This document shows, one piece after another, positions 9,088 to 59,950 of a stretch of 64,000 nt of DNA. Position 1 is the first letter of the stretch. Each line of letters begins with the position of its first letter. The translations under genes and the position numbers were made by a program. This stretch comes from Deltaproteobacteria bacterium RBG_16_64_85 (GTDB lineage Bacteria; Desulfobacterota; Deferrimicrobia; Deferrimicrobiales; Deferrimicrobiaceae), in assembly GCA_001798885.1 (NCBI GenBank), contig MGQW01000072.1:3669-67668 (forward strand). Reading direction: 5' to 3'. The notes under the pieces are model-generated. The model did not search any database. It was not told the origin of the DNA and was given only the letters and a program-made list of their open reading frames with translations.

Positions 9088-9609
9088 ATGCCTGCGATGG
9101 TAAAAAGCCGTGCGCCGGAGTTCACTCTGGACGGGGTGGTCGGGAAAGAGTTCAAGACGGTAAAGCTGACCGATTACAAGGGGAAGTGGGTCGTTCTCTT
9201 CTTCTACCCGCTCGATTTCACCTTCGTATGCCCCACCGAGATCCTCGAGTTCTCCCGCAGGGAGAGGGACTTCCTCCGGGAGGACTGCCAGATCCTCGGC
9301 GTGAGCGTCGACAGCAAGTACTCCCACCTGGCATGGGTCGAGCACGGGCTTGGGGAGATCTCCTTCCCGCTTCTGGCCGACATCCGCAAGCAGACGGCCC
9401 GCGATTACGGCGTTCTCCTCGAGGATGCCGGCGTCTCCCTTCGCGGCACGTTCATCATCGACCCCGAGGGGGTCATCCGGTGGATGCTCGTCCACGATCT
9501 GGGCATCGGCCGAAGCGTGGAGGAGGTGCTCCGCGTCCTGCAGAGTCTGAAGACGGGGGAGTTGTGCCCCGCGGAATGGCGGCCGGGGAAGGCGTTCATC
9601 CGCGCCTGA
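9088..9609 (+). CDS. 2-Cys peroxiredoxin (AhpC/Prx family)
   Basis: 173-aa ORF with DFTFVCPTEI peroxidatic Cys motif. AAGGAGG RBS upstream. Confidence 0.9.
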   Translation: MPAMVKSRAPEFTLDGVVGKEFKTVKLTDYKGKWVVLFFYPLDFTFVCPTEILEFSRRERDFLREDCQILGVSVDSKYSHLAWVEHGLGEISFPLLADIRKQTARDYGVLLEDAGVSLRGTFIIDPEGVIRWMLVHDLGIGRSVEEVLRVLQSLKTGELCPAEWRPGKAFIRA

Positions 9610-9621
9610 GGGGCGTGCCGC

Positions 9622-9950
9622 CTGCGCCGCCTCGGAGGGGGGCTCCGTTCGTGGCTTCTCGCCGTGCGGTGGACCCGCACGGCTGCGCTTTACCTCACTG
9701 CGCCCCCCTCCTGCGGCGGCTCCGCCGAACCCCCTGCAGTTTGCACCTTCCGCTTGTGGCACGCACCACCCGCGAAGCGCCTTCCGTTGAGGGCGCGTAC
9801 CGCTGTGGGTACGAGTTCCCTGTCTCCGCGGGATGACGCAGCGGGGGGTTCCTCGCAGCGGCCTGTGGAGCGAGGTGCGGATTGCGGCGAGCGTAGCGGA
9901 GAGGAAGCCCCCCGCGAGGAATCCCGCGGAACCAGGAAACGCAGCCGATC
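9622..9950. repeat. composite GC-rich structured intergenic repeat, copy 2 (module X 9622..9770, module Y 9777..9950)
   Basis: 9622..9727 is near-identical to the reverse complement of 47745..47849. 9777..9950 aligns with 1071..1189 but has an extra roughly 55-nt insert. Nested inverted repeats (CCGTGCGG/CCGCACGG, GGAGGGGGGC/GCCCCCCTCC, TCCGCGGGAT/ATCCCGCGGA). Confidence 0.75.
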
Positions 9951-10460: not shown

Positions 10461-10612
10461 CGATGGGGTCCTCCGGCGATAGTGGATGAGGCAGCGCCAA
10501 GAATACCACGGCGGGAGAGGCACGTTCAACCCCGGCGGGGCTGCGCTGCCTCCCTCGGTTTCACCTGCCGGGGCTTCGTTTTCGCGGCGCACGGCCGCGG
10601 CCCTCACACCGC

Positions 10613-10828
10613 TCAGGTGCCCCCGTAGCCGATGGTCACCTTGCCTTCTTCCAGGAGGACCGGCACGTCGCGGCCCCCCCGGGTCAAGGACGTCATCTCG
10701 GCCATCGCCGCCTTGTCGTGCTGCACATCCTTGTACGTCACCTCCGCACCGGCCTTCTCGTAGTCCCTACGAGCTTGGATGGTGTAGGGTCAGCTGTCCT
10801 TCCCGAAGATCGTCACCTTTCGCTGCAT
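10613..10828 (-). CDS. glutaredoxin-like thioredoxin-fold protein with in-frame TGA (candidate selenocysteine, U-P-Y-T redox motif)
   Basis: ATG 10828 with AGGAGG 6 nt upstream. Reads MQRKVTIFGKDS-TGA(10790..10792)-PYTIQARRDYEKAGAEVTYKDVQHDKAAMAEMTSLTRGGRDVPVLLEEGKVTIGYGGT-stop. The TGA is where Grx-like proteins carry the first Cys of CPYC. Coding-like codon usage continues after the TGA. CCCTAC-N13-GTAGGG hairpin starts 1 nt after the TGA. Confidence 0.6.
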
Positions 10829-10830
10829 GT

Positions 10831-11916
10831 CTAGCCTCCTACTCCTGCCATGGCTCTCAGTCGTTGGATGCGCAGCTCCGTCGGCGGGTGCGTGGACATC
10901 AGCGCGGAGGAATCGGCCGTGAACGTGCGGAGCGGGTTCACGATGAACAGGTGCTGGGTGCCCCGGTTCTCCCCCGGCACCTCCGCCCCTTCCCGGGAGA
11001 TTTTCTCCAGCGCGGAAGCCAGCCCCAGCGGGTTTCGCGTGAACTCCGCCCCCGCGGCGTCGGCGTGGTACTCCCGCTGCCGGGAGATGCTCATCTGGAG
11101 CAGCCGGGCGGCCAGCGGGGCGAGCACTGCGAGCACGATTCCCAGGAGCAGGAAGGCGACGTTTCCACGGCCTCCCCCCCCGCCCCCGCTTCGTCCCCTT
11201 CCCCGGAAGAAAAACGTGTCGCGCAGGAACAGGTCCGAGAGCAGGACGATGGCGCCGACGAGCACGACCGCGTTGACATTGTACAGCGTGTCGCGGCTTT
11301 TCACATGCGCCATCTCGTGGGCGATGACGCCCTGGAGCTCCTCCCGGCTCAGTCGGCCAAGGAGACCCGTGGTCACCGTGATCGTTGCCTCTTCCGGCTT
11401 CCTCCCCGTGGCGAAGGCGTTGATTCCCTGTGCGTCCATCACGTACACTTTCGGCATGGGCAGTCCCGCCGCGATTTTCATCTCCTCGACGACGTTCCGA
11501 AGCTGCTGATGTTCCTCGGGATCGGCTTCCCTGGCATCGTGGATCGAGAGGACGATCGAGGAACCGCTGAAGTAGGCGGTGGAAGCCAGGATGGCGTACA
11601 GGATCAGGGCGAGGGATAGCCCGAGCTCGAGACTTCCGTAGGCTTTCCCGATGACCCCCCCGAGCCCGAAAAAGGCGACGAGCAGAAGAAGGAAAAGGAG
11701 CCTCGACATGCGCACGTTGCTCGCCGCGGCCTCGTTGAAGGGAAGCATCTGCACGGGGCGCAGGGACGAGAACCCCCTGTGCGCGAAAGGCTCCTGGCAG
11801 AGGTTGCAGTAGACCGCGTCGGCGGGATTTTGCGTCCCGCACTTGGGACACGATCGCCCGAAGGTTTGGGGGACATTCCGATCTCGAGTCTCGCGTCGAG
11901 GAGTGTCCCCCCCCAT
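10831..11916 (-). CDS. htpX: M48-family zinc metalloprotease HtpX with N-terminal zinc-ribbon
   Basis: 361-aa ORF. CPKCGTQNPADAVYCNLCQ ribbon, TM helices, HEMAHV zinc-binding motif. Confidence 0.85.
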   Translation of the reverse strand: MGGDTPRRETRDRNVPQTFGRSCPKCGTQNPADAVYCNLCQEPFAHRGFSSLRPVQMLPFNEAAASNVRMSRLLFLLLLVAFFGLGGVIGKAYGSLELGLSLALILYAILASTAYFSGSSIVLSIHDAREADPEEHQQLRNVVEEMKIAAGLPMPKVYVMDAQGINAFATGRKPEEATITVTTGLLGRLSREELQGVIAHEMAHVKSRDTLYNVNAVVLVGAIVLLSDLFLRDTFFFRGRGRSGGGGGGRGNVAFLLLGIVLAVLAPLAARLLQMSISRQREYHADAAGAEFTRNPLGLASALEKISREGAEVPGENRGTQHLFIVNPLRTFTADSSALMSTHPPTELRIQRLRAMAGVGG

Positions 11917-11920
11917 GGGT

Positions 11921-12469
11921 TTACCTCAGGTCGGCTTTCGGGACGGCCTTGTCTTCCTCTCCGGCGGTGAAATATTCCGAGGGCCTGAAGTCGAACACCG
12001 ATGCGATCACGTTGGAGGGGATCGACTGGATCGTATTATTGTACGTCATTACCGAATCGTTGTAGTACTGGCGCGCGAAGGAGATCTTGTTCTCGGTGCC
12101 GGTCAGCTCTTCCTGCAGCGACGCCACGTTTTGGTTGGCTTTGAGATCCGGGTAGTTCTCCGCGACGGCGAAGAGGCTTTTCAGCGATTCCGTGAGAGCG
12201 TTCTCCGCCTCGGCCTGCGCGGCGGCCCCCTTTGCGGAGACGGCCGTGCCCCTCGCCTCGACCACACGGGTAAGCGTCTCCTGTTCATAGGTCATGTAGT
12301 CCTTGACGACCTCGACAAGGTTGGGGATGAGGTCGTGGCGGCGCTTCAGCTGCACCTCGATCTGGTGCCAGGCGTTCTGGATCTGGTTGCGCAGCCGGAC
12401 GAGCCGGTTGTACGTCCCGACGAACCAGGCCACGACGGCCACCGCGACGATTGCCGGAATCCAATGCAT
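11921..12469 (-). CDS. lemA: LemA family protein
   Basis: 182-aa ORF with N-terminal TM helix then YNRLVRLRNQIQNAWHQIEVQLKRRHDLIPNLVEVVK. 4 nt upstream of htpX. Confidence 0.9.
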   Translation of the reverse strand: MHWIPAIVAVAVVAWFVGTYNRLVRLRNQIQNAWHQIEVQLKRRHDLIPNLVEVVKDYMTYEQETLTRVVEARGTAVSAKGAAAQAEAENALTESLKSLFAVAENYPDLKANQNVASLQEELTGTENKISFARQYYNDSVMTYNNTIQSIPSNVIASVFDFRPSEYFTAGEEDKAVPKADLR

Positions 12470-12537
12470 GTCTCTGGTCTCCCCGTTGGTTTTTTCCCGA
12501 CGGACCGCTATTCCCCGGCCAGTCTAACGGATGTAAG

Positions 12538-14901
12538 ATGAATGTCAACTTGAAGCCCTCTTCCGACAAAAACAGGGACGCAAAGCCTTCGGGCGGCCCG
12601 CTGTTTCCCGAGCTCCTGGCTCCAGCGGGCTCCGTGGAGGCGTACTTCGCCGCGGTATCGGCGGGGGCGGACGCGGTCTACCTCGGCCTCCAGAAGTTCA
12701 GCGCCCGCGAGCGGGCGGAGAACTTCACGCTGGAGGAGCTCTGCCGCGTCCTGCCGCACGCGCGGCAGCGCGGGGTTCGCGTCTACCTTGCGATGAACAC
12801 CGTCCTCACGGAGGCCGACCTCCCCGAGGCGATCGCGATGCTGCACCAGGCGGCGCCCCTTCTCCCCGACGCCGTCATCGTGCAGGACCTGGGCCTCCTG
12901 CGGATCGTGCGAGAGTTCTTCCCCGGGATCTCTCTCCATGTCAGCACGCAGGCAGGGTGCGCCTCGGCCGCGGCCGCGGGGGAATTCGCCCGACTGGGAG
13001 CGGAACGGGTGATCCTGGAACGCCACCTGCGGCTCGAGGAGGTGCGGCAGATCGTCGCCCGATCCCGGGTCGACGTCGAGATCTTCGTGCACGGCGCGAT
13101 GTGCTACTCCTATTCGGGGAAGTGCTTCTTCTCCTCCTATCTCGGGGGCAAGTCCGGCAACCGCGGGGCGTGCGTGCAGCCGTGCCGGCGCCTCTACGGA
13201 CATGAAGGGGGGGAGGAGGCGGTTTTTTCGACGCGCGACCTTTCCCTGGTCGATCTCCTCCCGGAGCTCGTCCCGCTGGGGTTTGCCGCCTTCAAGATCG
13301 AAGGGCGGATGCGAAGCGCGGAGTACGTCGCCGGCGTGGTGTCCGCCTACCGGACCGCACTGGACCTCATCCGCTCGGGAAAGCCCGCGGAGGGTGTCGC
13401 AGAGGGAAGGAAGATCCTGTCCGAAGTGATCGGCCGGGAAGAAACGCGGGGGCTCACGGGGGGGGCGTTCCCCGGCGAGGTCGTCGCGGGGGGAAGCACC
13501 GGGAACGTGGGGGAACTGCTGGGCGCCATCCGCGAGGTTCGCGACGGGTGGGCGTTTCTCCCCGGAGAGGTGCCTGTTTCGCGGGGAGACCGGCTCCGGG
13601 TGCAGTTCCAGAGCGACGGCTCGGGGAAGGGCTTCACGGCGCTTTCGATGAGGGCCGATCCGCGCGGCTTCTACGTGACGGTTCCTTTCCCCGTTTCCCC
13701 GGGGGATCTCCTGTTCCGCGTGGGAGGCGGAGGACGCGCGGAGATCACCCGCCAGGCCAGGAAGGAAATGGATGCGATCCGGCCGGAGGGGGCGCGCTTC
13801 CACGTTGTCGTCGGGGAGACGGTCGTCGCCGTCGAAGCGGCTTACGGGAGGGTGAAGCAATCGTTCTCCTTCCGTATTTCGGGAGGGAGGGACTCCGCGG
13901 GGAGCAGGCTTCCACCCGACGCCGAAGGAAAGCTGGCGGCCGTCTACCACTGCGACCTCCCGCTGGGGGAGATCCGCGTCGAGGGGCACGGCGCCGGGGT
14001 TTCCTGGCCCGACGTGGAGGCCCTGTTCGTCAAGGCCGCCCGGAAGTTCGACAAGGATTTCTATCTCGCAGGAAAGGAGCTGCGCCTCTCCATCCTCCCC
14101 GCGCTCCGTGTGGCGGGGAACCGACAGGAGAAGATTCCGGCGGTTTTCTTTACCGGCTGCCGGGCCGACCAGCTGGCGTACCTTCCCGCGGGAGAAGAGA
14201 TCGTTCCCGTTGTGGAATTTTCCCGCGGGCTCGCGCGGGATCCCTCTCCGGCCGGCCAGGGAGCGTTCCGGAACCGGGCCTACCTCCGGCTGCCGGCGCC
14301 CTTCCTGGAGGCCGACGCCGCGTTTCTCCGGCGGACCGTCAAGGAAGCGGTCCGAAAGGGGCACCGGCGATGGGTGGTTTCCGACGTCGGCCATTTCGGG
14401 CTATTCTCCGGGTTCGACCTGCGGCGGGAAGTGACCCTGATCAGCGATTCCTACCTGTATGCCTTCAACATGGGGGCGCTGTCCGTCCTGTCCCGGATGG
14501 GCGCTTCGCGGATGGTCCTCCCCATCGAGGCGCCGCTTTCCTCCCTCCGGGCGGTGGGAAAATATCTGCACGGGCTGGGAATCGCGGTGGCCTACGCATC
14601 CATCCCCCTCATGATTTCCCGGCTGGTCCCCGCCGGTGGGGTCCGGGGAGGGGAAGTCGTGAGTCCGAGGGCGGAACGGTTCACCGTCGAGGTGGACGAA
14701 CGGGGTTCGACCCTCCGGCCCGTGCGGCCGTTCTCCGCCTCCGGGGCCCTGCACGAGATCCGCGCCGCGGGGATTCAGGATTTTTACGTGGACGTGCGGC
14801 ACGTTCCCCCGCAAGAGATCGGGGCGATCTTTATCGCACTGCGGGAGGACCGGAAGATCCCCGATGCGTCCACCTTCAACCTCTTCCGGGGTAATTTCTG
14901 A
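12538..14901 (+). CDS. U32 family peptidase-like protein (long, two-lobed form with Fe-S Cys motif)
   Basis: ATG 12538 inside ORF 12451..14901 (avoids overlap with lemA). ELLAPAGS...ADAVYLG N-terminus and CYSYSGKC-x15-C-VQP-C cysteine cluster. Confidence 0.85.
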   Translation: MNVNLKPSSDKNRDAKPSGGPLFPELLAPAGSVEAYFAAVSAGADAVYLGLQKFSARERAENFTLEELCRVLPHARQRGVRVYLAMNTVLTEADLPEAIAMLHQAAPLLPDAVIVQDLGLLRIVREFFPGISLHVSTQAGCASAAAAGEFARLGAERVILERHLRLEEVRQIVARSRVDVEIFVHGAMCYSYSGKCFFSSYLGGKSGNRGACVQPCRRLYGHEGGEEAVFSTRDLSLVDLLPELVPLGFAAFKIEGRMRSAEYVAGVVSAYRTALDLIRSGKPAEGVAEGRKILSEVIGREETRGLTGGAFPGEVVAGGSTGNVGELLGAIREVRDGWAFLPGEVPVSRGDRLRVQFQSDGSGKGFTALSMRADPRGFYVTVPFPVSPGDLLFRVGGGGRAEITRQARKEMDAIRPEGARFHVVVGETVVAVEAAYGRVKQSFSFRISGGRDSAGSRLPPDAEGKLAAVYHCDLPLGEIRVEGHGAGVSWPDVEALFVKAARKFDKDFYLAGKELRLSILPALRVAGNRQEKIPAVFFTGCRADQLAYLPAGEEIVPVVEFSRGLARDPSPAGQGAFRNRAYLRLPAPFLEADAAFLRRTVKEAVRKGHRRWVVSDVGHFGLFSGFDLRREVTLISDSYLYAFNMGALSVLSRMGASRMVLPIEAPLSSLRAVGKYLHGLGIAVAYASIPLMISRLVPAGGVRGGEVVSPRAERFTVEVDERGSTLRPVRPFSASGALHEIRAAGIQDFYVDVRHVPPQEIGAIFIALREDRKIPDASTFNLFRGNF

Positions 14902-23679: not shown

Positions 23680-26208
23680 CTATGGAGCTACGAATTCCAG
23701 CGACAGCTGCGGCACTGTGACACCCGCCACGCCGCGCGGCTCCCTGATCGACCCGCCCATCGCGATGAAGTGGCTTCTTGCCGTGTCGGAATCGTGGCAA
23801 TGACCGCACGCCGATGTCGCCGGCGTGTTCACCAGGTCGGTGGCGTTCGGCACGCTGGCCCGGGCCGCGTTGATATTAGCCGCGGTATTATCCGCGCCCG
23901 TAGTGGTTTTCGCGGTAGTCAGAAAACGGCCGGTCGTCTGGATGTTCTGGTACAGGTTGTTCAAGTGGCACTTCCCGCAGTGGGTCAGGTCGCCGGGAAA
24001 GGCGATCTCGTCCCCTTGGAGGAGGACGCCGTCCAGGCGGTTGCGGATGTCCACGAAGTTGGTGGTCCGCTTGGCGGCCCCGTGCAGCCCGTGGATCAGC
24101 TCCTTGAAGTTGTTGGAGACTTCGGGGTACTGCAGCGGATTGCTCCCGAAGAGGGCCACGATGTCGGGGTTGATCGGGCTGGCCGTGATGGTGCGGCCGC
24201 TGGAGGACAGGTTGGGGTTGTGGCACATCACGCAGACCTGCGCGTTGCTGACGCGGTTCCCGCCGTGCCCCTCGAAGATCTCGTGGCACTCCAGGCAGCC
24301 GACCGGCGTCCCGGTAATCGGATTGTTGCTGTTGGTGTAACCGCTCTCGACGGCCACGCGGCGGACCCGGTCGCCGGTGACCGGTTTCACGACCGAGAAG
24401 GTGTGGCGGCCGACGTTATCCAGTCCAGGGATGCCATCCACGTCCGCCCCGTTGGTCTGGGTGAAATACCCCTGGAGGGCGACCGCCCGCATTTGCGCGC
24501 CGACCGGGAACGCGTTCGCCCTCTGTACCGAATATTGCGTGAACCCGACGTTGTCGAACGCGACGATCGGCAGGCCGATGATGGAGAGACTCTCCGGCTG
24601 CCCCGCGGTCCTGCCGAGGTTGTTGTAGTCAAGGGGTTCTGCGACCCCGTCCTGCGGCAGCGCATAGGCGAACAGGAAGCTCGGGCCGCCGCTGAAACCG
24701 CTGGGACGGGTGATCGTGGTGCTGCCGAGATTCACGAAAGCGCCGTCCTTCTTGATCCAGAACTTGATCGTCGCCACGTTGGTGCCCTCGTCCACCGTGA
24801 CGTTGTCGATCCCGTACTCGAAGCTTACCAGCGTGCCGGGAAGCTGCGGGTTGTTGGGCGTCGCGTTCTCTGTGGCGTGGGCTTCCTTTATGGCAAGCAG
24901 CGTACCCGATGGCGGATGGCAAAAAACGCAATTGGCGTCAGTCGTTTGGATGCTGCCTATGCCGTGACCGCCGCCGGTCGCGAAGTTGACGTTGACGTGG
25001 CAAGAGCCGCACCCCGTGCGCGTCGGCCGGTTCTGCCAGTTGGCGTAGGTGTTGTCGGCATCCGTCCCCTGGTGGCACCTCGTGCAGTTCCGGATGTCCT
25101 GGGGATAGGTCACCTCGCTGAAGTTGCCGAGTTCGCCGATATTCTGGACGAGGCCGGGGGTGTTGGGGGTGTGGTTGTGGATCTTGTGCACGAGGTTGAC
25201 CAGGTTGGCGTTATCCCAGCCCCCGCCGGCCGGGTTGCCGGCGATCTCGAGCTTGGCATTGTGGCAGATCTGGCAGAACTTGTATTCGCGGCGGCCGCCG
25301 CCGTGGATCGCCAGCGGGTCGTGGCACACGTTGCAGGCTGAGGTGGAGACGTCGTTCTTGGCGGGATACGCGCCCGGCGCCGGAATCGCACCCGTCCCCC
25401 CGCCGACCGGGGGCACCACGTCCAGGAATGCGTTCGCGGCCGGCCTTCTGCGGGACGTCGTGTGGTAGTACGTGTCGGTCGTGAAGAGATTGAGAGTTGC
25501 CGTATTGAGCGTATTGGGATTTCCTATTGAAAACTGTGTTCCCGCCCGCACGAGCACGTTATCGGCGTAACCGTCCGAAACGCGGACGGCGGTGGTCGGG
25601 AAGGTATAGGAGTAGACGCCGGTGGCGGGAGTTCCGGTAAAGACCGCTCCGGCGGCTCCGTCGGGCCGGTTCGCTCTGAAGGGCCCGCTGCCGCTCGCCC
25701 CGGGGGTTAACACGAAGCCGTTCCACTCGTCGGCGCCCCCGTTCGTGCCGGGAACCATCTTGGCGAGGAGGAACGACACGAAGGCGAGATTGTCATTGAT
25801 CCCGGAGCCGGACTTGGTACGCAGGTCGATGCTGGGGGTGATGTCGACTCCGTTGGCGTCGCTCGCAGCGAAGGTGAAGTTCACCGTTACGGGAACGTTG
25901 TCCCCGCTGGGCGCGCCGAAGTCGACGGAAGTGATGGTGATCGTTGCGGAACCGGTGGGCAGGGGGTTCCCGGTCGTCGGGTTGAGGCGGTGCATCGCGT
26001 GGACGCTGAACGGTTGCCCCGCGGAGTGGCAGAGGAAGCAGGTCTCATTCGACTGGAGCGCCGGCCCGGGACCGCCGGGAGGACCGGGAGGGCCGGCGGC
26101 GCCGGGAGCGCCGGGAGCGCCGGCGGCGCCATCCGAACCGCTGCATCCGAAGAACAGGAGCGGCACGATCAGCGAGAAAAGCCCTAACCATAAAAGCGTC
26201 TTCCTCAT
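23680..26208 (-). CDS. decahaem c-type cytochrome lipoprotein (outer-surface type)
   Basis: 842-aa ORF. Lipoprotein signal ...LLFFGC, a Gly/Ala/Pro linker, and 10 CXXCH motifs (CFLCH, CNVCH, CQICH, CTRCH, CGSCH, CVFCH, CLECH, CVMCH, CGKCH, CGHCH). Confidence 0.9.
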   Translation of the reverse strand: MRKTLLWLGLFSLIVPLLFFGCSGSDGAAGAPGAPGAAGPPGPPGGPGPALQSNETCFLCHSAGQPFSVHAMHRLNPTTGNPLPTGSATITITSVDFGAPSGDNVPVTVNFTFAASDANGVDITPSIDLRTKSGSGINDNLAFVSFLLAKMVPGTNGGADEWNGFVLTPGASGSGPFRANRPDGAAGAVFTGTPATGVYSYTFPTTAVRVSDGYADNVLVRAGTQFSIGNPNTLNTATLNLFTTDTYYHTTSRRRPAANAFLDVVPPVGGGTGAIPAPGAYPAKNDVSTSACNVCHDPLAIHGGGRREYKFCQICHNAKLEIAGNPAGGGWDNANLVNLVHKIHNHTPNTPGLVQNIGELGNFSEVTYPQDIRNCTRCHQGTDADNTYANWQNRPTRTGCGSCHVNVNFATGGGHGIGSIQTTDANCVFCHPPSGTLLAIKEAHATENATPNNPQLPGTLVSFEYGIDNVTVDEGTNVATIKFWIKKDGAFVNLGSTTITRPSGFSGGPSFLFAYALPQDGVAEPLDYNNLGRTAGQPESLSIIGLPIVAFDNVGFTQYSVQRANAFPVGAQMRAVALQGYFTQTNGADVDGIPGLDNVGRHTFSVVKPVTGDRVRRVAVESGYTNSNNPITGTPVGCLECHEIFEGHGGNRVSNAQVCVMCHNPNLSSSGRTITASPINPDIVALFGSNPLQYPEVSNNFKELIHGLHGAAKRTTNFVDIRNRLDGVLLQGDEIAFPGDLTHCGKCHLNNLYQNIQTTGRFLTTAKTTTGADNTAANINAARASVPNATDLVNTPATSACGHCHDSDTARSHFIAMGGSIREPRGVAGVTVPQLSLEFVAP

Positions 26209-26320
26209 CTTTTCCTCCTTTGGTCTGGTTGGTTGTTAACAACGGTGAAGCATGACAATCGATAACGGGTCCGCGCCCGCGCGCACGACATATTGAGGTC
26301 CTCCTGCCCGTCGATGGGAA

Positions 26321-26349
26321 AGCCCCCGCCGGAGCGGGGGCTTTTTTTC
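26321..26349. terminator. GC-rich hairpin between the 12-haem and 10-haem genes
   Basis: AGCCCCCGC-cgga-GCGGGGGCT. The T-run is on the plus strand and the A-run on the minus, so for the minus-strand operon it is at best a weak or partial terminator or a processing site. Confidence 0.4.
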
Positions 26350-26371
26350 GGATCCTTTCCTGCCGGCCCGG

Positions 26372-29278
26372 TCACGGCCGGGTGAGCAACGTGGGCGTGC
26401 CTGCGGCGGCCGGGTCCAGGTCCCGGATGGAGTCGTAGAGAAGCTGGAGGACGTACCTCGGGTTGTGCACGTAGCCGCACGGCTCCTTCTGGACGACCTG
26501 GTAGTTGTAGGCCGCCCGGAGCAGCTTGGCATCGAAGACGTTGTACCGGTTTGCGAAGACCGCCTCGTTCGCGTCGACGTTGCCGTTCCCGTTGTTGTCC
26601 TTGAACCAGTATGGGTATGTTGCCGGGTCGTAGGCGATCTGCGCCGGCCGGTTCGCCGCCGCATACGCCTGGATGGCAATCAGCAGCCGGTTCACGACGT
26701 TGTCGGTGCCATTGACGCCGGTGCCCCAGATCTCACGGTAGATCCCCTCGGTTACGTTTCCGTTCCCGTTGTAGTCGGTCCCCCCCAGTGGAGGGAACCT
26801 GATCGACCGGAAGCGGGCCGCATCGGCGGCGTTGTCCGGCACCGGGACCGACAGGTGGCAGACCGCGCAGTACTCCGTCTTCGGAAACATCGTGTGGTTG
26901 TTCTCGTTCAGGTCGGCCGTCCTGCCCATGTGGCACTCGATGCACGTGTCGCGGGCGGGGGTGTGGACGAGCCTTCCCGAGTAGACCTGGTTGTCGTATT
27001 CGTAGCCGCCCCTGACCTCGGTGCCGAAGAAGGTCGCCGCGGCGGCGAAATAGTGGATGTTGATGAACGTCAGGTTGTTGATCGAGTTGTCCAGGGGATC
27101 GTTCGCGATGGCGGTGTCCACCTGGACCTTGGAGGCCTGGCCCTGGTGGCAGACCATGCACAGGTTGCTGGCATCGGCCAGGGTCTTCCCTACCCCTGAG
27201 GGGAAGACCACGTTGTCGAGCGCGTCGCCGGCGGCGCGCCGGGCGTACCGCGTGGTCCCGTCGCCGTCACTGCTGTGGCAGGCGGCGCAGGAGATCTTGC
27301 TGCCCAGCTTGGCGGAGGTGTTGACGACCCCGTCCTTCACGAAGTCGATGTAGCCGTACTTGCTATGGCACTTGGCGCAGGAGGTCGGAATGGACCCGTC
27401 CACGTCCCAGTGGCGGAACGGCTCGCCGGTGAAGTCGGCGTGGCCCGACCTCGACCATTCCGCGAGCGGCTTGACGTACTTGGGACTCGCGGGGTCGTTG
27501 CTGTGGCACGGGGTCGTGCCGTAGCAGGAGCTGACCATCGCGGCGTTCACCTTGAGCTGCCCGTTGTCGTAGGCCACGACGTTCACGCTGGGCCAGATGA
27601 TGTTGAACGAGTGATTGTGGATGTCCCCTTCCTGCAGCCCGAGCCCGAAGGTCTTGCGGATCGCCGATGAGGAGGTTTTGGGCATGTGGCAGGTCGAGCA
27701 CCGGCCGACGCCGGTCCCCTCAGGGTCGTAGGGAGCCTGGGCCATGACGGCCTCTTCTCCGATGTGCCGGACCACCGCGGTCCGGACGGCGGCGGGGTTG
27801 GACTTGACGTCGTTGGGCGTCAGGCTGAAATCGTCAGCGTGGCAAGCGAGGCACAGGCTGTTGTCGGAATCCTTCGTCGCGAACGTCACGCCATCCCGGG
27901 TGACGGAATCCTTGATCTGGTGGTCGTCTCCGGGGTTCGCCTTCGGGTTCCCAGCTGCTTTATGCGGATTGTGGCATCCCCAGCAGGTGGTGTCGGTGCT
28001 CTTGTCGGGCCCGTGCGGCCCCTGCTCCAGGTCGGTCCACGCCTGGTGGTGCTGCAGGGATGCGATGTACTTCGGAAAGTTGTATCCCAAGTACCAGTTC
28101 CGGTATGCCGTATAAATGCTCAGCGTGGGGGACGCGGCGCCGTAGTATGCCGTCGTTGTGTTGAGGATGACGAAGGGATTTCCCGCGGAGTTGTCGATCG
28201 AACTTTCGCCCGGGAACGGGAACGTAAGGACGCCCCCGACCAGGCGGGCCGGGAACTCGAGGTTGAGCGACATCCCCGCCAGCGTGGCGTTCCCCTCGCC
28301 GCGCTGGTGGCAGTTGCCGCAAACTTGGTCGGCGAGCCGGATGCCGGCGACCCCGAGGCGCTCGAGATTCGCGGGATTGGTGATGAAGGCCGGGTTCCCG
28401 CTGCTGTTCACGTGCTGGGCGCCCGGCCCATGGCAAGCCTCGCACCCGATGTTGAGCTCGACGTAGCCGGAGACGACCTCGGAGACGTTGGCGCCGGCGT
28501 ATGCCTGGGTCTGGGAGGCGAGGGACAGCCCGGTCTGGTGGCAACCCGCGCACCGGTTCTCCCAGGACCTCGCCGTCCCCAGCTTGGTCGCCGTCGCGTT
28601 CAGCGCGCCGAACTGGGCGACCAGGTTGTCGGTGCCGTAGGCCTGCGTGTACCGGGGGGTGTTCGTCCCGCTGTACCAATGGGTGGCGTTGTACGCCTCG
28701 TACTTTTTCGTGACCTCGTTGTACTGGACGGGGGAGATGTAGTAGCTCTTGCCGACCTTGGTGTGGTACCGTTGCTTCCAGTACCCGTTTCCGCCCTGCG
28801 TCCTCTGGACCTCGAACTCCACGCCGGCGATGCTGATGATGTGCTTCCCGTTGACGATTTTGAGGATCGGTGCGTTGGGGCGGCTGTTCTTCAGGGCGGT
28901 CCCGTTCGCGTTCGCCTCGATGAGGCTGTCGGTGGCAGGGCTGTTGAAGTCGAGCGTGTCCTTGAAGTCGTCCTGCCCGTTCCCGTTCGCGTCGTTGACG
29001 AAGATGGCGTCGCCAAGCTCGGCCACGGTCTTCAGCGGCGCGTTGTGGAGCGACTTCGACCAGCCGGTGAACTGGTCCGGGTGGCAGTTCTTGCACGCTT
29101 CCGAACCGATGTAGCCGCCGGCGGCGGCGAGGGCCGGGTCTCCCTTCTGGACCGTCCCCGTCGGGGTGACTCCCGGACCGATCGCCCCTTCGCGGTTCCC
29201 GGACCCGCCGCAACTGGCCAGGAGGGCCAGAAGGAGAAAACTTGCGGTGACGGTGATGTGCATTCCGATCCTTTTCAT
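26372..29278 (-). CDS. dodecahaem c-type cytochrome lipoprotein
   Basis: ATG 29278 (GGAGGG upstream) inside ORF 26372..29317. Signal ...LLALLASCGG. 12 CXXCH motifs plus one C-YGTTP-CH. Confidence 0.9.
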   Translation of the reverse strand: MKRIGMHITVTASFLLLALLASCGGSGNREGAIGPGVTPTGTVQKGDPALAAAGGYIGSEACKNCHPDQFTGWSKSLHNAPLKTVAELGDAIFVNDANGNGQDDFKDTLDFNSPATDSLIEANANGTALKNSRPNAPILKIVNGKHIISIAGVEFEVQRTQGGNGYWKQRYHTKVGKSYYISPVQYNEVTKKYEAYNATHWYSGTNTPRYTQAYGTDNLVAQFGALNATATKLGTARSWENRCAGCHQTGLSLASQTQAYAGANVSEVVSGYVELNIGCEACHGPGAQHVNSSGNPAFITNPANLERLGVAGIRLADQVCGNCHQRGEGNATLAGMSLNLEFPARLVGGVLTFPFPGESSIDNSAGNPFVILNTTTAYYGAASPTLSIYTAYRNWYLGYNFPKYIASLQHHQAWTDLEQGPHGPDKSTDTTCWGCHNPHKAAGNPKANPGDDHQIKDSVTRDGVTFATKDSDNSLCLACHADDFSLTPNDVKSNPAAVRTAVVRHIGEEAVMAQAPYDPEGTGVGRCSTCHMPKTSSSAIRKTFGLGLQEGDIHNHSFNIIWPSVNVVAYDNGQLKVNAAMVSSCYGTTPCHSNDPASPKYVKPLAEWSRSGHADFTGEPFRHWDVDGSIPTSCAKCHSKYGYIDFVKDGVVNTSAKLGSKISCAACHSSDGDGTTRYARRAAGDALDNVVFPSGVGKTLADASNLCMVCHQGQASKVQVDTAIANDPLDNSINNLTFINIHYFAAAATFFGTEVRGGYEYDNQVYSGRLVHTPARDTCIECHMGRTADLNENNHTMFPKTEYCAVCHLSVPVPDNAADAARFRSIRFPPLGGTDYNGNGNVTEGIYREIWGTGVNGTDNVVNRLLIAIQAYAAANRPAQIAYDPATYPYWFKDNNGNGNVDANEAVFANRYNVFDAKLLRAAYNYQVVQKEPCGYVHNPRYVLQLLYDSIRDLDPAAAGTPTLLTRP

Positions 29279-29306
29279 GTAGAAACCCTCCGTCGGTGGA
29301 TATCGG

Positions 29307-30044
29307 TTAAAAGTCATGGCAGACCCGGCACGAGCGGTTGTTGCTCTTGGACCGGATGCGGTTCGCCTTGAAATCCTTCGGATGCGGGTTGACGCGCAGG
29401 TTCCCCGTCCTGGCCGAGTGGCAGGTGAGGCAGACGTCCCCCTCGGGATGGCACGACTGGCACGACGCCAGGTTGCGCCTGGCCTCGGCGGCGTGCCCGT
29501 CCGGGAAGGAGGCGGTGTACCGCTGCCCCGACGGGGCGCTCAGGTTGTGGTCCTTGACCGACCGGTTGGCGAGCCCAAGCCGCGTGTGGCAGTTCGAGCA
29601 GAATTGCTGCTCGTGGCAGCGGGCGCACTGCTGCTGGTTCGTCTGGGCCTGCATCGGGTGGATGGAGACCCAGTCGCTGCGGTGGCTGTCGGGCTTGATG
29701 TCCCGCTTGTACTGGCTCCGGGAGAGATTCGCGTTGATGCCCCCGCCCTTGTGGCAGTCCTGGCATGTCCCCTGGTCGTGGCATTCAGCGCAAAGGGCGT
29801 CGGGCCGCGATGCGAGGACCCGGTGCTCCTTGTCCCAACCGCTGCCGTGGTTCGGCTGGATCCCGGAATCCTTGTGGCATTCGGCGCATTCGGGGAGCTT
29901 CAGCTCCCGGTAGGCCTTGTGGTCCTCCCGGCCGAACGCCGTGACCGCGATCATGACCGCCGGGAGAAGGATCAGGAAGATGCGAATCAGCGGATTTTTC
30001 AAGTGTCTTTCCTCCTCTATCGACCGGGCGTCAGAAGCGTACAT
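29307..30044 (-). CDS. periplasmic octahaem c-type cytochrome
   Basis: 245-aa ORF with an N-terminal hydrophobic segment and 8 CXXCH motifs (CAECH x2, CQDCH, CARCH, CSNCH, CQSCH, CLTCH, CRVCH). Its start overlaps the porin-like gene stop by 14 nt. Confidence 0.9.
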   Translation of the reverse strand: MYASDARSIEEERHLKNPLIRIFLILLPAVMIAVTAFGREDHKAYRELKLPECAECHKDSGIQPNHGSGWDKEHRVLASRPDALCAECHDQGTCQDCHKGGGINANLSRSQYKRDIKPDSHRSDWVSIHPMQAQTNQQQCARCHEQQFCSNCHTRLGLANRSVKDHNLSAPSGQRYTASFPDGHAAEARRNLASCQSCHPEGDVCLTCHSARTGNLRVNPHPKDFKANRIRSKSNNRSCRVCHDF

Positions 30045-31290
30045 CCAAGGCGACCCGTCCCGAGAATTCGTTCTCGGACTGGCGGGTCACCTTGTCTTCC
30101 ACCCGGAGCCTGGCGGTCATGTTCTTCCGCACCTCGTACGATCCCCCCGCCCAGTACTTCTTCGCCGAGAAGTCGTCCGTCATCGAATCCCTCTGGAAGA
30201 CGTCGTAGGCGACCCCCGCTGCGAGGTTTGCTTTCTTGAAGGTGTAGTCGGCCGAGAGGTCGAGGCCGGTCAGGTCCCCGGGGTATCCCCGGCGGACGTC
30301 CACGGCCGCCCGGATCCCGAGCCCCTCGACCTGCTTCGGACGGAACCGGGCGCCCAGGGAGCCGATGTCCGCCGTCGGGCCTTCATAGTCGGCCCGGGTG
30401 TAGGAGCCGAAGAGGGTCACCTGGGGAGTGACGATGTAATCCACCCGCCCCAGTACTTCCTTGTACCGTGTGACCGCAAAGACCGTGAAGATCGAGTCGG
30501 CGTCGAAGTTGGGGTACGACTGGAAGTACTCCCCCGTGATCGTGAGCAGGCTGGTGAAGGGGATGAGCTTTACGCCCGCGAGGAGCTCGCTGCTGGCCTC
30601 GTGCAGGATGTCGTAGCGCCAGTCCACGTAGGCCTTCGCCTTCTTGTAGAATCCCTGGTCGGCGTGGACTCCCAGCATCTCCCGGACAATGTCGGTATCG
30701 TTGTACTTCCGCAGGTAGCTCAGCTCGATATTCGTGTTGTGGAGGACCGTCCCGTCCTTGAGGAACGACGCGCCCGCCGAGGCCCCGAGGAGGAAGTCCC
30801 CGGCCCGGCTCAGGTCGGTGGTTTCCCGGAACCGCACGTCGTACCCGGCGAAGGCCGAGAGCGCCACGGGACCCAGGTTGCGTGCGTCGACCCTGACGCC
30901 GTCGATCGTCCCCGCACCCGCGCCCACGACGACGAATTGCCGCCCCAGCCGGATGTCCCCGCGGCTCCCCGGAAGGGCGTAGTTCACGTAAAGGTAGTAG
31001 AGCCGGCCCAGGATATCGTCCGAGTCGCTGAAGACTCCATCTTGGCCGGCGCCGAGCTGCTTGGAGACCCGGCCGTACCCAAAGGCGCTGAACCGGCCGG
31101 CGTTGTCGATCGCCGTCGCGCCGATCTTGAGGTACTCCACGACGTCGCTCTGGTTTTTATCCAGGAACGGGTCGTTGTACCAGAGGTACTGCGTCGAGCT
31201 CTGGAACCGGACGTCCGCCGCGCGGGCCGGCCCCGGAGCCAGGAAGAGAAGGAGAAGCACGACGGGGAAGAGCCATCTCTTTCCTTTCAT
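30031..31290 (-). CDS. porin-like outer-membrane beta-barrel protein (no haem motifs)
   Basis: 419-aa ORF. Signal peptide ending PARA-AD, alternating hydrophobic pattern rich in Y/G/D/R, C-terminal ...ALDVRF. First gene of the cytochrome operon. Confidence 0.75.
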   Translation of the reverse strand: MKGKRWLFPVVLLLLFLAPGPARAADVRFQSSTQYLWYNDPFLDKNQSDVVEYLKIGATAIDNAGRFSAFGYGRVSKQLGAGQDGVFSDSDDILGRLYYLYVNYALPGSRGDIRLGRQFVVVGAGAGTIDGVRVDARNLGPVALSAFAGYDVRFRETTDLSRAGDFLLGASAGASFLKDGTVLHNTNIELSYLRKYNDTDIVREMLGVHADQGFYKKAKAYVDWRYDILHEASSELLAGVKLIPFTSLLTITGEYFQSYPNFDADSIFTVFAVTRYKEVLGRVDYIVTPQVTLFGSYTRADYEGPTADIGSLGARFRPKQVEGLGIRAAVDVRRGYPGDLTGLDLSADYTFKKANLAAGVAYDVFQRDSMTDDFSAKKYWAGGSYEVRKNMTARLRVEDKVTRQSENEFSGRVALDVRF

Positions 31291-36309: not shown

Positions 36310-36404
36310 CAGAAAGAGGAGGATGCGCCTAACTGCAATTCCTTTGAAAACAAGAAGTTTGCAATTCATCCGACGATGCCGCAATACCGGTTGGTGGACA
36401 TAGT

Positions 36405-36437
36405 AGGCAAATTCCCACTCGGCTTGGGGATTTTCCC
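36405..36437 (-). promoter_or_regulatory. candidate enhancer palindromes, copy B
   Basis: On the minus strand, GGGAAAATCCCC and GGGAATTTGCCT, 21 nt start-to-start, at the same relative position as in copy A. Confidence 0.35.
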
Positions 36438-36617
36438 ATACGGCCCCTCGTCCATCCAAGGCATGGCACCAGAAAAGATCCAGGAGCCCCCTCTCCGAAA
36501 CGGTTGATTTCGGCGCCCGGTTTGCGTATCCTGATACGGCTTTCCGCCAGGGATACCGCCGGCAGAATCCGCACCGCAATAACCGATAGAACACTCAACT
36601 TGGTGAGGAGGACGCAC

Positions 36618-36779
36618 GTGGGAAGGAACATCGTTCAGAAGATCATCGATGTGCACCATGCGGGAGGGGAAAAGAAGCCCGGCAAGGAGATCGCCATCCG
36701 TATCGCGCAGGGCGACCAGGTCGAGATCCTCCTGGCCGGCGGGCGGCTGGCCTACACGAATGAGAAAGGGTCCTTCTGA
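36618..36779 (+). CDS. small ORF (53 aa); N-terminus resembles the start of aconitase-family proteins (possible gene relic)
   Basis: GTG 36618 with GAGGAGG upstream. (M)GRNIVQKIIDVHHAGGEKKPGKEIAIRI... with high GC3. The resemblance to aconitase N-termini (..N.VQKI...H...GE.KPG.EIA.RIDQ) is from memory and is lost after about 30 residues. Confidence 0.35.
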   Translation: MGRNIVQKIIDVHHAGGEKKPGKEIAIRIAQGDQVEILLAGGRLAYTNEKGSF

Positions 36780-36938
36780 TTGGCCCGCGACGACTGGAAA
36801 TATTACGACGACGAAATGGAGGAAGGGGAGGAGGAGAAGAAGGCTCTCCTCCCCGAGAAACAGTGTAAACACTGCCTCCACTGGGTTCCGCAGGAGGCGC
36901 CGTCCTGCTCCTGGTGCGGGAAGCCGTTCGAGGAGTAG
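36780..36938 (+). CDS. small zinc-ribbon protein (CxxC-N12-CxxC)
   Basis: TTG 36780 (or ATG 36816) to TAG 36936..36938. ...EKQCKHCLHWVPQEAPSCSWCGKPFEE. Coding-like codon usage. Below the ORF-track size cut-off. Confidence 0.4.
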   Translation: MARDDWKYYDDEMEEGEEEKKALLPEKQCKHCLHWVPQEAPSCSWCGKPFEE

Positions 36939-46330: not shown

Positions 46331-47701
46331 TTACCCCACCTCGGCGTAGGGGCGAAGGCGGAACGTGACGCCTTCGATCGATTCGGCAAGACGCCGGACG
46401 GCGTCGTGGTCCAGGTCCGGCAGGGCCACGGCGGTGGCTACGACCGACGGGATGTGGCGAGGTGCCTCCCGGAGGAAGTCGAGGAGAGCGGGGAACGACG
46501 CCGCCCCATAGCGGTTGGGGCAGATCCTGGCGTACGTCCCGGCGTCCGGCGCGTTGAGCGAGACGGAGAGGGCGTCCACCAGGCCCGAGAGCTCCGGCAG
46601 AACATTGCGGCCATGCACCAGGTTCGCCAGCCCGTCGGTGTTGATCCGGATCTTCGCGCCCTTGCCTTTCAGCGTCTTCGCGATCGCCTTGACGTCGGCA
46701 AGCCGCAGGAACGGCTCCCCGAACCCGCAGAAGACGATCTCGTCAACCTCCGTAGGGTCGCCCACCTCCGCGACGACCTCTTCGACGGAAGGCTCCCCCG
46801 GCAGCTTCAGGTAGTGCCCTTTTACGTAGTAGTCGTCCCGCTTTGCGCAGAAAGTGCAGGTGTTGGTGCACCGGTTGGTGATGTTGAGGTACAGGGAGTT
46901 GCGGATCTTGTAGGAGACGCGGACCTCCTCCTCCGCCGGGATGCGGAAGATCCGCAAGGCGGAAAGGGTCGCGACCCGGCCGACGTCCTCCCCGGCGACC
47001 CCCTTGATCTCGCCGATCTTTTTCGCCACCAGCGGGACATAGGCCGGCTCGTTCGTCTTCCCCCGGTAGGGCAGCGGGGCCAGGAACGGGCAGTCCGTTT
47101 CGATGAGGAGCTTCTCCAGGGGGATCTTGCGGACCGCCTCCGCTTGCGTCCCGGAGCCCTTGTAGGTGATCGCGCCGGGGATGGAGATAAGGAAGTTCAT
47201 CCCGATCGCCCTGCGGGCCATTTCGCAGTCCCCGGAAAAGCAGTGGATGATCCCGCCGACATCGGCGGCGTTCTCCTCCGCCAGGATGGAGAGGATCTCG
47301 TCGTGGGCGTCCCGGTCGTGGACGATGATCGGGAGGTTCCGCCGCCGGGCGAGGCGGATCTGCTCCCGGAAGGCGGCCCGCTGGGCCTCCCGGGGGGAGC
47401 GGTCGCGGTAGAAGTCGAGGCCTGTTTCGCCGATCCCCACCACCTTGTCGCACCGGGAGAGCTCTTCCAGGCGCGCAAGGAGAGGTTCCGAGCAGGCGGA
47501 GGCATCGTGAGGGTGGAGTCCCACCGAGGCGTACACGCCCGTGTGCCGGTGGGCGATCGCGATCGCCTTTTCGCTGCTTTCGGGACCGATGCCGATCGTG
47601 ACGATGCGCGTAACCCCCGCCTCATGCGCCCGGCGGACGACTTCTCCTTCCGCGTCGCAGAGCGGTTCCAAATCCAGGTGCGCGTGCGTGTCGAAGTACA
47701 T
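46331..47701 (-). CDS. TatD-family hydrolase fused to a C-terminal radical SAM domain
   Basis: 456-aa single ORF. N-terminal YFDTHAHLD...ETDCPFLAP TatD motifs. C-terminal LNITNRCTNTCTFC (CxxxCxxC) and GFGEP radical SAM motifs. Confidence 0.85.
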   Translation of the reverse strand: MYFDTHAHLDLEPLCDAEGEVVRRAHEAGVTRIVTIGIGPESSEKAIAIAHRHTGVYASVGLHPHDASACSEPLLARLEELSRCDKVVGIGETGLDFYRDRSPREAQRAAFREQIRLARRRNLPIIVHDRDAHDEILSILAEENAADVGGIIHCFSGDCEMARRAIGMNFLISIPGAITYKGSGTQAEAVRKIPLEKLLIETDCPFLAPLPYRGKTNEPAYVPLVAKKIGEIKGVAGEDVGRVATLSALRIFRIPAEEEVRVSYKIRNSLYLNITNRCTNTCTFCAKRDDYYVKGHYLKLPGEPSVEEVVAEVGDPTEVDEIVFCGFGEPFLRLADVKAIAKTLKGKGAKIRINTDGLANLVHGRNVLPELSGLVDALSVSLNAPDAGTYARICPNRYGAASFPALLDFLREAPRHIPSVVATAVALPDLDHDAVRRLAESIEGVTFRLRPYAEVG

Positions 47702-47849
47702 GCTTCAGTTCCTCGTGTGCCGGAAGGCGCACGCCGCAGAAGGGTCCGGCGGAGCCGCCGCAGGAGGGGGGCGCAGTGAGGTAAAGCGCAGCCGTGCGGG
47801 TCCATCGCACGGCGAGCCACGAACGGAGCCCCCCTCCGAGGCGGCGCAG
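47702..47849. repeat. GC-rich structured intergenic repeat, copy 3 (inverted copy of module X at 9622..9770)
   Basis: The reverse complement of 47745..47849 is near-identical to 9622..9727. The weaker tail runs up to the tatD start codon at 47701. Confidence 0.8.
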
Positions 47850-58174: not shown

Positions 58175-58875
58175 CGTCGACGAGCGCCGAGACCCCGAAG
58201 TCCGTTTCCATCGTCCGCATGTCCTTCCTGTTCCGGGTCCAGCACGCGCTCCTCATGGTCACGCTGCTCGTGCTCGCGCTGACCGGTTTTGCCCTGATGT
58301 ACCACGAGAACTGGCTCGGGCGGAACCTGATCCACCTGGAAGGCGGTTTCCTGTACCGCGGGTTCCTCCATCGCGCAGCGGCGTCCCTCCTGATGGGCCA
58401 GCTGGTCTTCCACGCCTTCTACATGCTGTTCACCCGGGAGGGAAAGAAGGAGCTCGGAGAGTTCCTCCTGGCGCGGCGGGATTTCGCAGATTTCCTCCAG
58501 GCGATCCGATACAACCTGGGGACCGCAGGGGAGTATCCCCGGTTCGGCAAGTACGGATACAAGGAGAAGTTCCAGTACTGGGGTGCGACGCTCGGCGTCT
58601 TCTTCATCTCGGTGACCGGCCTCATCCTCTGGGCGGAGACCTTCTCGATGCGGTTCCTCCCCAAGGTCGTCCTGGACATCACGCTCATCGTCCACGGCTA
58701 CCAGGGGCTGCTGGCGTTCGTCATCCTCCTGTTCTGGCACCTGTACAACGAGCACCTGCACCCTTCCGTCTTCCCGATGAACAACGCCTGGCTGACGGGA
58801 AAGGTCGACGCGGAATGGCTCCGCCAGGAGCACCCGCTGGAGTACGAAAAACTGAAACAGGAAGGGGTTCTATGA
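58171..58875 (+). CDS. FdnI/HydC-like cytochrome b membrane subunit (module 2, b subunit)
   Basis: ATG 58171 (ATGA overlap). 234 aa, FRVQHALLMVTLLVLALTGFALMY ... IVHGYQGLLAFVILLFWHLYN ... EHPLEYEKL. Paralogous to the C-terminal half of module 1. Confidence 0.85.
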   Translation: MTSTSAETPKSVSIVRMSFLFRVQHALLMVTLLVLALTGFALMYHENWLGRNLIHLEGGFLYRGFLHRAAASLLMGQLVFHAFYMLFTREGKKELGEFLLARRDFADFLQAIRYNLGTAGEYPRFGKYGYKEKFQYWGATLGVFFISVTGLILWAETFSMRFLPKVVLDITLIVHGYQGLLAFVILLFWHLYNEHLHPSVFPMNNAWLTGKVDAEWLRQEHPLEYEKLKQEGVL

Positions 58876-59939: not shown

Positions 59940-59950
59940 GGAGAGAAGGG

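Follow-up and report, generated by a model that had tools for sequence, protein, structure and literature searches.

A glutaredoxin-like gene of a deltaproteobacterial contig very probably encodes a member of UXX-star selenoprotein family 1 with two selenocysteines

The UXX-star selenoproteins are named after their C-terminus, where selenocysteine (Sec, U) is followed by two residues and a stop codon. UXX-star selenoprotein family 1 is represented by the NCBIfam model NF041114 and is the same family as the "Distant Grx-like protein 1" of the Zhang-lab reviews (PMC9312934, PMC13188914). In a table of one review, the entry for NF041114 gives UxxT as the motif and two as the number of Sec residues (PMC13188914), and the second review likewise assigns the UxxT motif (PMC9312934). 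The name "Distant Grx-like protein 1" is absent from the main text of the 2008 GOS (Global Ocean Sampling) paper, which the reviews cite for it. The related UXX-star family 2, family 3 and HUGP/GUXX-star fusion (NF041211, NF047338 and NF045501, respectively) share with family 1 a glutaredoxin-like domain that ends in [U/C]-x-x-stop. One of the reviews records GxGU and a single Sec for family 2, and UxxC, likewise with a single Sec, for the Clostridium glutaredoxin (Grx) (PMC13188914). For the models of family 2 and the fusions, Haft & Tolstoy 2025 is cited in one review. In this study, we analyzed a gene for a protein of this kind on the minus strand of a stretch of 64,000 nucleotides (nt) from contig MGQW01000072.1 of Deltaproteobacteria bacterium RBG_16_64_85; this whole stretch is called the window below. 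The first-pass annotation of the window had presented the gene as a new candidate selenoprotein. We found that the glutaredoxin-like selenoprotein gene is genuine but that its family is already catalogued: because there is a curated NCBIfam model and the family is listed in the two reviews (PMC9312934, PMC13188914), the candidate is not new. It is very probable that 10828..10604 of the minus strand encodes a 74-residue UXX-star family 1 member with two Sec residues, in which each UGA codon has its own selenocysteine insertion sequence (SECIS) hairpin.

The coordinates of the gene and of its surroundings are given in Table 1. The frame starts with the ATG at 10828..10826, and 2 nt separate this ATG from the stop codon (TAG, 10833..10831) of an open reading frame (ORF) for an M48 protease (HtpX-like). 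The ATG, the AGGAGG before it, the 2-nt gap and the in-frame TGA at 10792..10790 had been described in the first-pass annotation, and all of them are present. Translation of the frame gives MQRKVTIFGKDS-TGA-PYTIQARRDYEKAGAEVTYKDVQHDKAAMAEMTSLTRGGRDVPVLLEEGKVTIGYGGT-TGA; that is, the product starts with MQRKVTIFGKDS, continues with PYT after the internal TGA and reaches GYGGT. It had been proposed that a 71-residue product ends at this GYGGT. However, the terminal TGA is a conserved second Sec codon, and the true end lies 9 nt further, at 10604. The four codons at 10615..10604 are TGA-GCG-GTG-TGA, which are read as U-A-V-stop. Thus, the gene ends as the name UXX-star describes, and its N-terminal site, U-P-Y-T, has the form UxxT. 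Four independent metagenome assemblies (L083-L086) carry exactly the same 301 nt across the gene and its flanks. Therefore, neither TGA is a sequencing error. In the public assemblies of this identical sequence, the slot was called as a 42-residue "hypothetical protein" stub (three assemblies) or was left empty (one assembly), so the statement that gene callers miss the ORF was correct. The main value of our result is in annotation: the correct model has 74 residues and two Sec residues, and its second SECIS lies past the stop codon. C-terminal Sec codons are easily mistaken for stop codons, even once the first Sec has been spotted.

Family membership was measured with the product in which Sec was replaced by Cys. 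This product matched the Pfam Glutaredoxin model PF00462 with 32.7 bits (gathering score, 22.9). The curated equivalog cutoff of NF041114 is 72 bits. Without the C-terminal CAV, the product scored 93.5 bits over profile positions 1-67; when CAV was included, the score was 101.4 bits over positions 1-70 of 70. The CAV tail thus gains 7.9 bits and gives full coverage of NF041114. When X was placed at both Sec positions, the score was 88.1 bits. The parent subfamily model NF041212 was passed as well (82.8 bits; cutoff, 66). In contrast, the scores for the other UXX-star models were far under their cutoffs (NF041211, 44 versus 100; NF047338, 46 versus 97; NF045501, 47 versus 325). The classical glutaredoxin equivalogs TIGR02181 (32 versus a cutoff of 90) and TIGR02180 (15 versus 87) were not reached, nor were the NrdH/YruB models TIGR02194 (14.6 versus 85.75) and TIGR02196 (33.9 versus 88.55). 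The window protein shares with UXX-star family 1 the profile from end to end, the UxxT motif, the two Sec residues, the U-x-x-stop terminus and the size of about 70 residues, and it departs from the family in no essential point. Three features are specific to the window copy: the operon context with LemA and the HtpX-like protease, the AV dipeptide after Sec72 (12 of 82 loci; the commonest dipeptide, GV, occurs in 45) and a first hairpin that is specific to its clade.

In a sequence search of the PDB, the window protein matched glutaredoxins only. Sec13 aligned with the first Cys of CPYC or CPHC, and D-V-P-V aligned with the cis-Pro loop of glutaredoxins. A structural model was built with AlphaFold2 on a homolog with Cys at both sites (P0030), using an alignment of 22 sequences. 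The mean predicted local distance difference test score (pLDDT) was 95.6 and the predicted template modeling score (pTM) was 0.84. The topology of this model is beta-alpha-beta-alpha-beta-beta, with an ordered tail and no helix after beta-4. In a Foldseek search, the best matches of the model were cGrx1 of Clostridium oremlandii, a natural selenoprotein (PDB 7c12 and 7c10; template modeling (TM) score, 0.80), E. coli Grx3 (3grx; 0.81) and NrdH (1h75; 0.79). A thioredoxin-fold core is thus shared with cGrx1 and Grx3. As in the classical glutaredoxins, helix 1 carries Sec or Cys at its N-terminus, and the V-P of the cis-Pro is kept. Unlike the classical glutaredoxins, the window protein has U-P-Y-T without a resolving Cys and, according to the model, a G-Y-G-G-T-U-A-V tail with the second Sec in place of the C-terminal helix. 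The NrdH-redoxin/YruB-type proteins are similar to the window family in size and fold. However, their motif is CxxC and they lack a C-terminal tail with Sec or Cys, whereas the window motif has no second Cys. The protein is a minimal thioredoxin fold of the glutaredoxin/NrdH type minus the usual C-terminal helix.

The two Sec assignments were examined by comparison with related loci. A scan of one genome per species, in which species-representative genomes of many phyla were included, yielded 272 relatives of UXX-star family 1. The codon counts given here are from the best 80 of these plus two metagenomic loci. All of these belong to bacteria that have not been cultured (Acidobacteriota, "Deltaproteobacteria," NC10/Methylomirabilota, Binatia, Nitrospirota and others). 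The first site holds TGA in 53 loci; 30 loci have a Cys codon there (TGC in 18 and TGT in 12). This agrees with the earlier proposal of a glutaredoxin-fold selenoprotein with Sec in place of the first active-site Cys. At the second site, which follows GG[TS], the codon is TGA in all 82 loci with enough sequence. The dipeptide after Sec72 is GV in 45 loci, AV (the form of the window) in 12, EV in 11 and another in 14. The true stop codon, which follows this dipeptide, varies among TGA (46 loci), TAG (20 loci) and TAA (16 loci). A disrupted frame, which the first-pass annotation had named as an observation that would speak against its proposal, was found in none of the 82 loci. Downstream of UGA1, 36-59% of the codons that differ in pairwise comparisons are synonymous. 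We also performed a profile search of 1.84 billion representatives. The divergent Cys/Cys members P0030 (...GFPGT-C-G-V), P0094, P0128, P0147, P0163 and P0166 end in C-x-[VIF]-COOH. Thus, Cys counterparts exist at both UGA positions, which is the standard criterion for Sec. Among the 82 loci and the 150 best representative hits, the combinations at the first and second sites are U/U, C/U and C/C only; the combination U13/C72 was found in none of them. The family is widespread, and an experimental approach to its function would break new ground; the window adds just one further member.

Because Sec72 is only two codons before the stop codon, its SECIS must sit outside the ORF. In the window, the hairpin CGCGGC-CGUGC-GCCGCG is found at this place (Table 1). 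For the comparison of loci, a hairpin was counted when a perfect stem of at least 5 bp started 8-19 nt after the U of UGA2 and enclosed a loop of 3-6 nt. Of the 79 distinct sequences, 78 have such a hairpin. By the same rule, it was found in 18% of dinucleotide shuffles, at 17% of positions drawn at random from these loci and after 17% of other ORF stops. All 78 hairpins have a G residue among the first two nucleotides of the loop (the loops are GGUC, GUC, GGU, GUU, CGUGC and others), and GU or GG is present in 77 of the 78 loops. The hairpins comprise 70 distinct sequences, and four to six types of base pair occur at each of six stem positions. A T-rich tail follows one of the 78 hairpins. 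Therefore, these hairpins are not intrinsic terminators. It should be mentioned that this loop-anchored scan with its three controls replaced a column-based covariation test or a covariance model, because the alignment of the 3' regions by MAFFT lost the register of the second hairpin and a covariance model would be circular. The gene is a clean natural case of a bacterial SECIS that is wholly 3' of the ORF, with a tightly constrained distance from its UGA codon.

The SECIS after UGA1 is probably at 10773..10757, although this assignment is less secure than that of the second SECIS. Its apical hairpin, CUCGUAG-GGA-CUACGAG, has a base-pair probability of 0.99 and belongs to the minimum free energy (MFE) fold. 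None of the 18 nt GCTCGTAGGGACTACGAG of this hairpin differs among the eight members of the window's clade, while synonymous sites elsewhere vary. Codons +6, +7 and +8, which span nt +18 to +26 counted from UGA1, carry 1.27, 1.14 and 1.45 bits of information at their third positions in the 49 Sec forms and 0.35, 0.28 and 0.46 bits in the 29 Cys forms. For the Arg encoded there, all 49 Sec forms use CGU, CGG or AGG, versus 19 of the 24 Cys forms that encode Arg (Fisher p=0.003). In the register of the window's clade, 62% of the cells pair in the Sec forms (slid controls, 27-45%). In the Cys forms 45% pair, a value that is not above their own slid controls. In a second register, pairing is 63% in the Sec forms versus 50% in the Cys forms. 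Together, the synonymous constraint and the pairing point to an RNA constraint after UGA1 that is specific to the Sec forms. These synonymous-site and pair-count tests replaced a comparison of MFE z-scores after UGA1, which were weakly different between the Sec and Cys forms (p=0.053). A different stem had been proposed before, between CCCTAC (10789..10784) and GTAGGG (10770..10765). The two segments are indeed complementary, but they are most likely not the SECIS stem: their pair probability is 0.0 in the folding ensemble. Moreover, in four of the six distinct close relatives (L003, L005, L006 and L007), Pro is encoded by CCG, and a G.G mismatch interrupts this stem. The stem also excludes the overlapping invariant hairpin CUCGUAG-GGA-CUACGAG.

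From these data, we propose the following scheme. The gene is probably co-transcribed with lemA and the htpX-like M48 gene and would be translated from its own Shine-Dalgarno site. UGA1 would be recoded by the hairpin within the ORF, at about 10773..10757, and UGA2 by the hairpin at 10599..10583, beyond the stop codon. In the protein, Sec13 would take the place of the nucleophilic Cys in U-P-Y-T, and Sec72 would be carried on the U-A-V-COOH tail. Because Thr replaces the resolving Cys and the tail bears the one further Sec or Cys, we infer that residue 72 is the partner of residue 13. The two residues would form a diselenide in the window protein and a selenenylsulfide in the forms with Cys13. 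The protein would then act as a small redox carrier, like the C-terminal Sec tail of thioredoxin reductase. In mammalian thioredoxin reductase, the C-terminal Gly-Cys-Sec-Gly tail acts as a mobile redox center. Here as there, Sec is near the C-terminus after a glycine-rich linker, and hence the SECIS is outside the ORF. However, thioredoxin reductase has an unrelated flavoprotein fold, and the eukaryotic SECIS is located far downstream in the 3' untranslated region. Furthermore, the partner Cys of thioredoxin reductase is adjacent in sequence, whereas the pair in the window protein is 59 residues apart. The presence of Sec at the C-terminal site in 82 of 82 loci and the absence of a Sec13/Cys72 form from these loci and the 150 best representative hits would fit a catalytic rather than an accessory role of the tail. 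We put forward the Sec13-Sec72 redox pair as a tentative mechanism, with a little less than even confidence. A wider idea is that the protein is a natural diselenide oxidoreductase built upon a minimal glutaredoxin scaffold and that, in this lineage, it works with the co-transcribed LemA/HtpX-like module for membrane-protein quality control and the neighboring rubrerythrin-like protein as a selenium-dependent system for envelope or oxidative stress; this we consider doubtful.

Several points weigh against this reading of the gene. The literature that we examined offers no experiment showing Sec incorporation or activity for this family. For the region after UGA1, RNAalifold yields no consensus on 47 Sec-form sequences, and there is no single family-wide register; covariation at the first SECIS is weak, and the MFE z-score of the window is unremarkable (-0.98). 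There was no relevant Rfam match, either in the whole window at gathering thresholds or at the locus at E<=10. The genes selA, selB, selD and that for tRNA-Sec were not found within the 64-kb window by ARAGORN, by tblastn with E. coli SelA, SelB and SelD, or by Pfam scans of about 47 candidate ORFs; ARAGORN found no tRNA gene of any kind there. Because the window holds no Sec machinery, we infer the Sec-decoding capacity of the genome. In one relative (L017, DASRAN010000041.1), a selA gene is present at 1494-2846, about 3 kb upstream of the UXX-star gene. Its product is 44% identical to E. coli SelA over 463 residues (E=1e-101), and no other gene of the Sec machinery was found in about 875 kb of the relatives' loci. 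As for the function, no neighbor is conserved family-wide: the largest cluster, with a 4HBT-type thioesterase, comprises 10 of about 78 loci. Since the neighborhood is not conserved across the family, the gene context is a poor functional guide. The putative pairing of Sec13 with Sec72 is deduced from the motif and the tail. Finally, the 2026 review suggests metal binding as an alternative role (PMC13188914).

In the metal-binding alternative, the protein is the same two-Sec protein, but its selenols, together with Thr16, would chelate a soft metal or metalloid (Hg, As, Cu or Fe), and no diselenide cycling would take place. The neighbors in the window's clade, a ferritin/rubrerythrin-like gene and a convergent peroxiredoxin gene, would suit such a role, and the host possesses many multihaem cytochromes. 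However, there are no adjoining metal-resistance genes, the neighborhood varies across the family, and both the fold and the position of the motif are typical of thiol-disulfide oxidoreductases. We regard metal chelation as possible but unlikely.

Returning to the two-Sec gene model, the nearest competitor is a single-Sec protein of 71 residues, in which only the UGA at 10792..10790 is recoded and the TGA at 10615..10613 is a genuine stop codon. Gene callers do end 23 of 23 database homologs at GG[TS], NF041114 is passed without the last three residues (93.5 bits), and a product of this length is expected if Sec insertion fails at UGA2. In contrast, the codon is invariably TGA in the 82 loci, whereas the real stop codons vary among TGA (46), TAG (20) and TAA (16). 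The next two codons are conserved ([GAE][VI]), and a stop codon always follows them. Of 79 loci, 78 have a SECIS-like hairpin after this codon, versus 17-18% in the controls. Moreover, the Cys homologs keep C-x-[VIF]-COOH, the CAV tail adds 7.9 bits to the score, and the review lists two Sec residues (PMC13188914). The 71-residue protein is thus very improbable.

It might also be supposed that UGA is read as Trp or Gly through a reassigned genetic code and not as Sec. Indeed, W stands at both sites in some public predictions of the family: a code in which UGA is Trp was used for at least 14 database proteins (among P0037-P0104). However, these predictions also place W at the final TGA and run beyond it into non-homologous tails. 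Judged from their sequences, they are an annotation artifact that hides selenoproteins. The residues at the aligned positions of homologs are Cys, neither Trp nor Gly. Of the 44 family-supported ORFs in the window, 19 have TGA as their stop codon; one of them is gcvH, whose match runs to the end of the profile and which has a terminator. Therefore, UGA is no general sense codon here. The selenoprotein gene itself ends in TGA, and the GC content of the genome is 64%. We assign practically no weight to a reassigned code. That the locus is a pseudogene or a chance ORF, namely a glutaredoxin gene broken by a nonsense mutation or a sequence error, may be suspected from a stop codon after 12 codons of a 74-codon ORF and from the lack of Sec machinery in the window, but this near-zero possibility is, on comparative sequence data, effectively refuted by the four identical assemblies, the same TGA in 53 loci of many phyla, where the frame is intact and the protein downstream is conserved, the 36-59% of differing codons after UGA1 that are synonymous, and the curated family model that is passed.

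Table 1. Features of the UXX-star family 1 selenoprotein gene and of its neighborhood (positions in the window)
Feature	Position	Strand	Basis or remark
Promoter-like site TTGACA-16-TAGACT	12548..12521	-	Promoter scan
lemA, first gene of the putative operon	12469..11921	-	Pfam LemA, E=1.6e-58
M48 zinc metalloprotease (HtpX-like) with N-terminal zinc ribbon	11916..10831	-	Pfam Peptidase_M48, E=1.6e-36
Shine-Dalgarno sequence AGGAGG	10840..10835	-	Sequence; 6-nt spacer to ATG
Corrected coding sequence, UXX-star family 1 selenoprotein, 74 residues: MQRKVTIFGKDS-U-PYT...GYGGT-U-AV-stop	10828..10604	-	Sequence, translation, NF041114
First UGA (UGA1), Sec13; start of the CxxC-equivalent motif U-P-Y-T (residues 13-16)	10792..10790	-	PDB alignment, homologous codons
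Probable first SECIS, apical hairpin CUCGUAG-GGA-CUACGAG	10773..10757	-	Stem begins 19 nt past the U of UGA1; within the ORF
Second UGA (UGA2), Sec72; three residues from the C-terminus	10615..10613	-	TGA in 82/82 loci; varying true stop three codons on
True stop codon TGA	10606..10604	-	Sequence
Second SECIS, hairpin CGCGGC-CGUGC-GCCGCG	10599..10583	-	-11.8 kcal/mol; starts 16 nt after the U of UGA2; wholly 3' of the stop codon
Rubrerythrin/ferritin-like protein, 159 residues	10460..9981	-	Pfam Rubrerythrin, E=1.2e-10; 143 nt past the selenoprotein stop codon
AhpC/TSA peroxiredoxin gene, convergent	9088..9609	+	Beyond the rubrerythrin-like gene

The genes around the selenoprotein gene are listed in Table 1. 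The M48 protease matches the HtpX models of NCBIfam with scores below their cutoffs. The order lemA, htpX-like gene, selenoprotein gene and rubrerythrin-like gene recurs in metagenomic relatives of the window's clade. No minus-strand terminator was found after the selenoprotein gene. In the 143-nt spacer before the rubrerythrin-like gene, there is a TTGAAC-18 nt-TATTCT element at 10529..10500 (minus strand) with TG two bases before the -10 hexamer. One relative (L003) has a similar TTGAAC...TATCTT at the equivalent place. This element, which is below the threshold of the promoter scan, may be an internal promoter. A small repeat is found near the AhpC gene: about 130 nt long, it occurs in two copies that are about 92% identical and inverted relative to each other, at 9622..9752 and 47721..47849. 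Both copies are intergenic; one sits after the AhpC gene, and the other is between an ORF with TatD and radical-SAM domains and metG. The repeat has GC-rich inverted termini (GCCGCCTCGGAGGGGGGC ... GCCCCCCTCCTGCGGCGGC) and looks like a small palindromic intergenic repeat or an element of the miniature inverted-repeat transposable element (MITE) type.

Other TGA codons of the window were considered as Sec codons. The TGA at 63019..63021 on the minus strand ("...FVED-TGA-PVPIK-stop") was rejected as a C-terminal Sec codon: it is the ordinary stop codon of gcvH, since the match reaches the end of the profile and a U-tailed terminator hairpin comes next. An ORF at 36348..36935 on the plus strand, between a PilZ response-regulator gene and uvrD, contains a TGA at 36777..36779 with 143 codons upstream and 52 codons downstream, and the GC content at third codon positions is high on either side of it. 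It was rejected as a selenoprotein gene: neither half matches Pfam or NCBIfam, and the ORF may be spurious. The remaining selenoprotein candidates in the window are on the opposite strand of annotated genes and were rejected as well.

The methionyl-tRNA synthetase encoded in the window matches those of "Deltaproteobacteria bacterium" metagenome-assembled genomes at 89%, of Ca. Deferrimicrobiaceae at 83% and of Deferrisoma camini at 63%. This points to an uncultured, deltaproteobacterium-like host related to Ca. Deferrimicrobiaceae, in line with the deltaproteobacteria-like selenoproteomes to which the first-pass annotation had referred. The ORF with TatD and radical-SAM domains (46331..47701, minus strand; 456 residues) contains a complete TatD-type DNase domain (residues 3-252) and a radical-SAM domain (residues 272-440); it may be a real fusion, or two genes may have been joined by the choice of ORF. 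Two clusters of genes for large multihaem c-type cytochromes with MtrC/MtrF-like domains and cytochrome c7/c3 repeats are located at 23680..31290 (minus strand) and 54867..62937 (plus strand). Some of these cytochromes are fused to, or are beside, membrane subunits of the cytochrome b561 type. The presence of these clusters fits a metal-respiring lifestyle.

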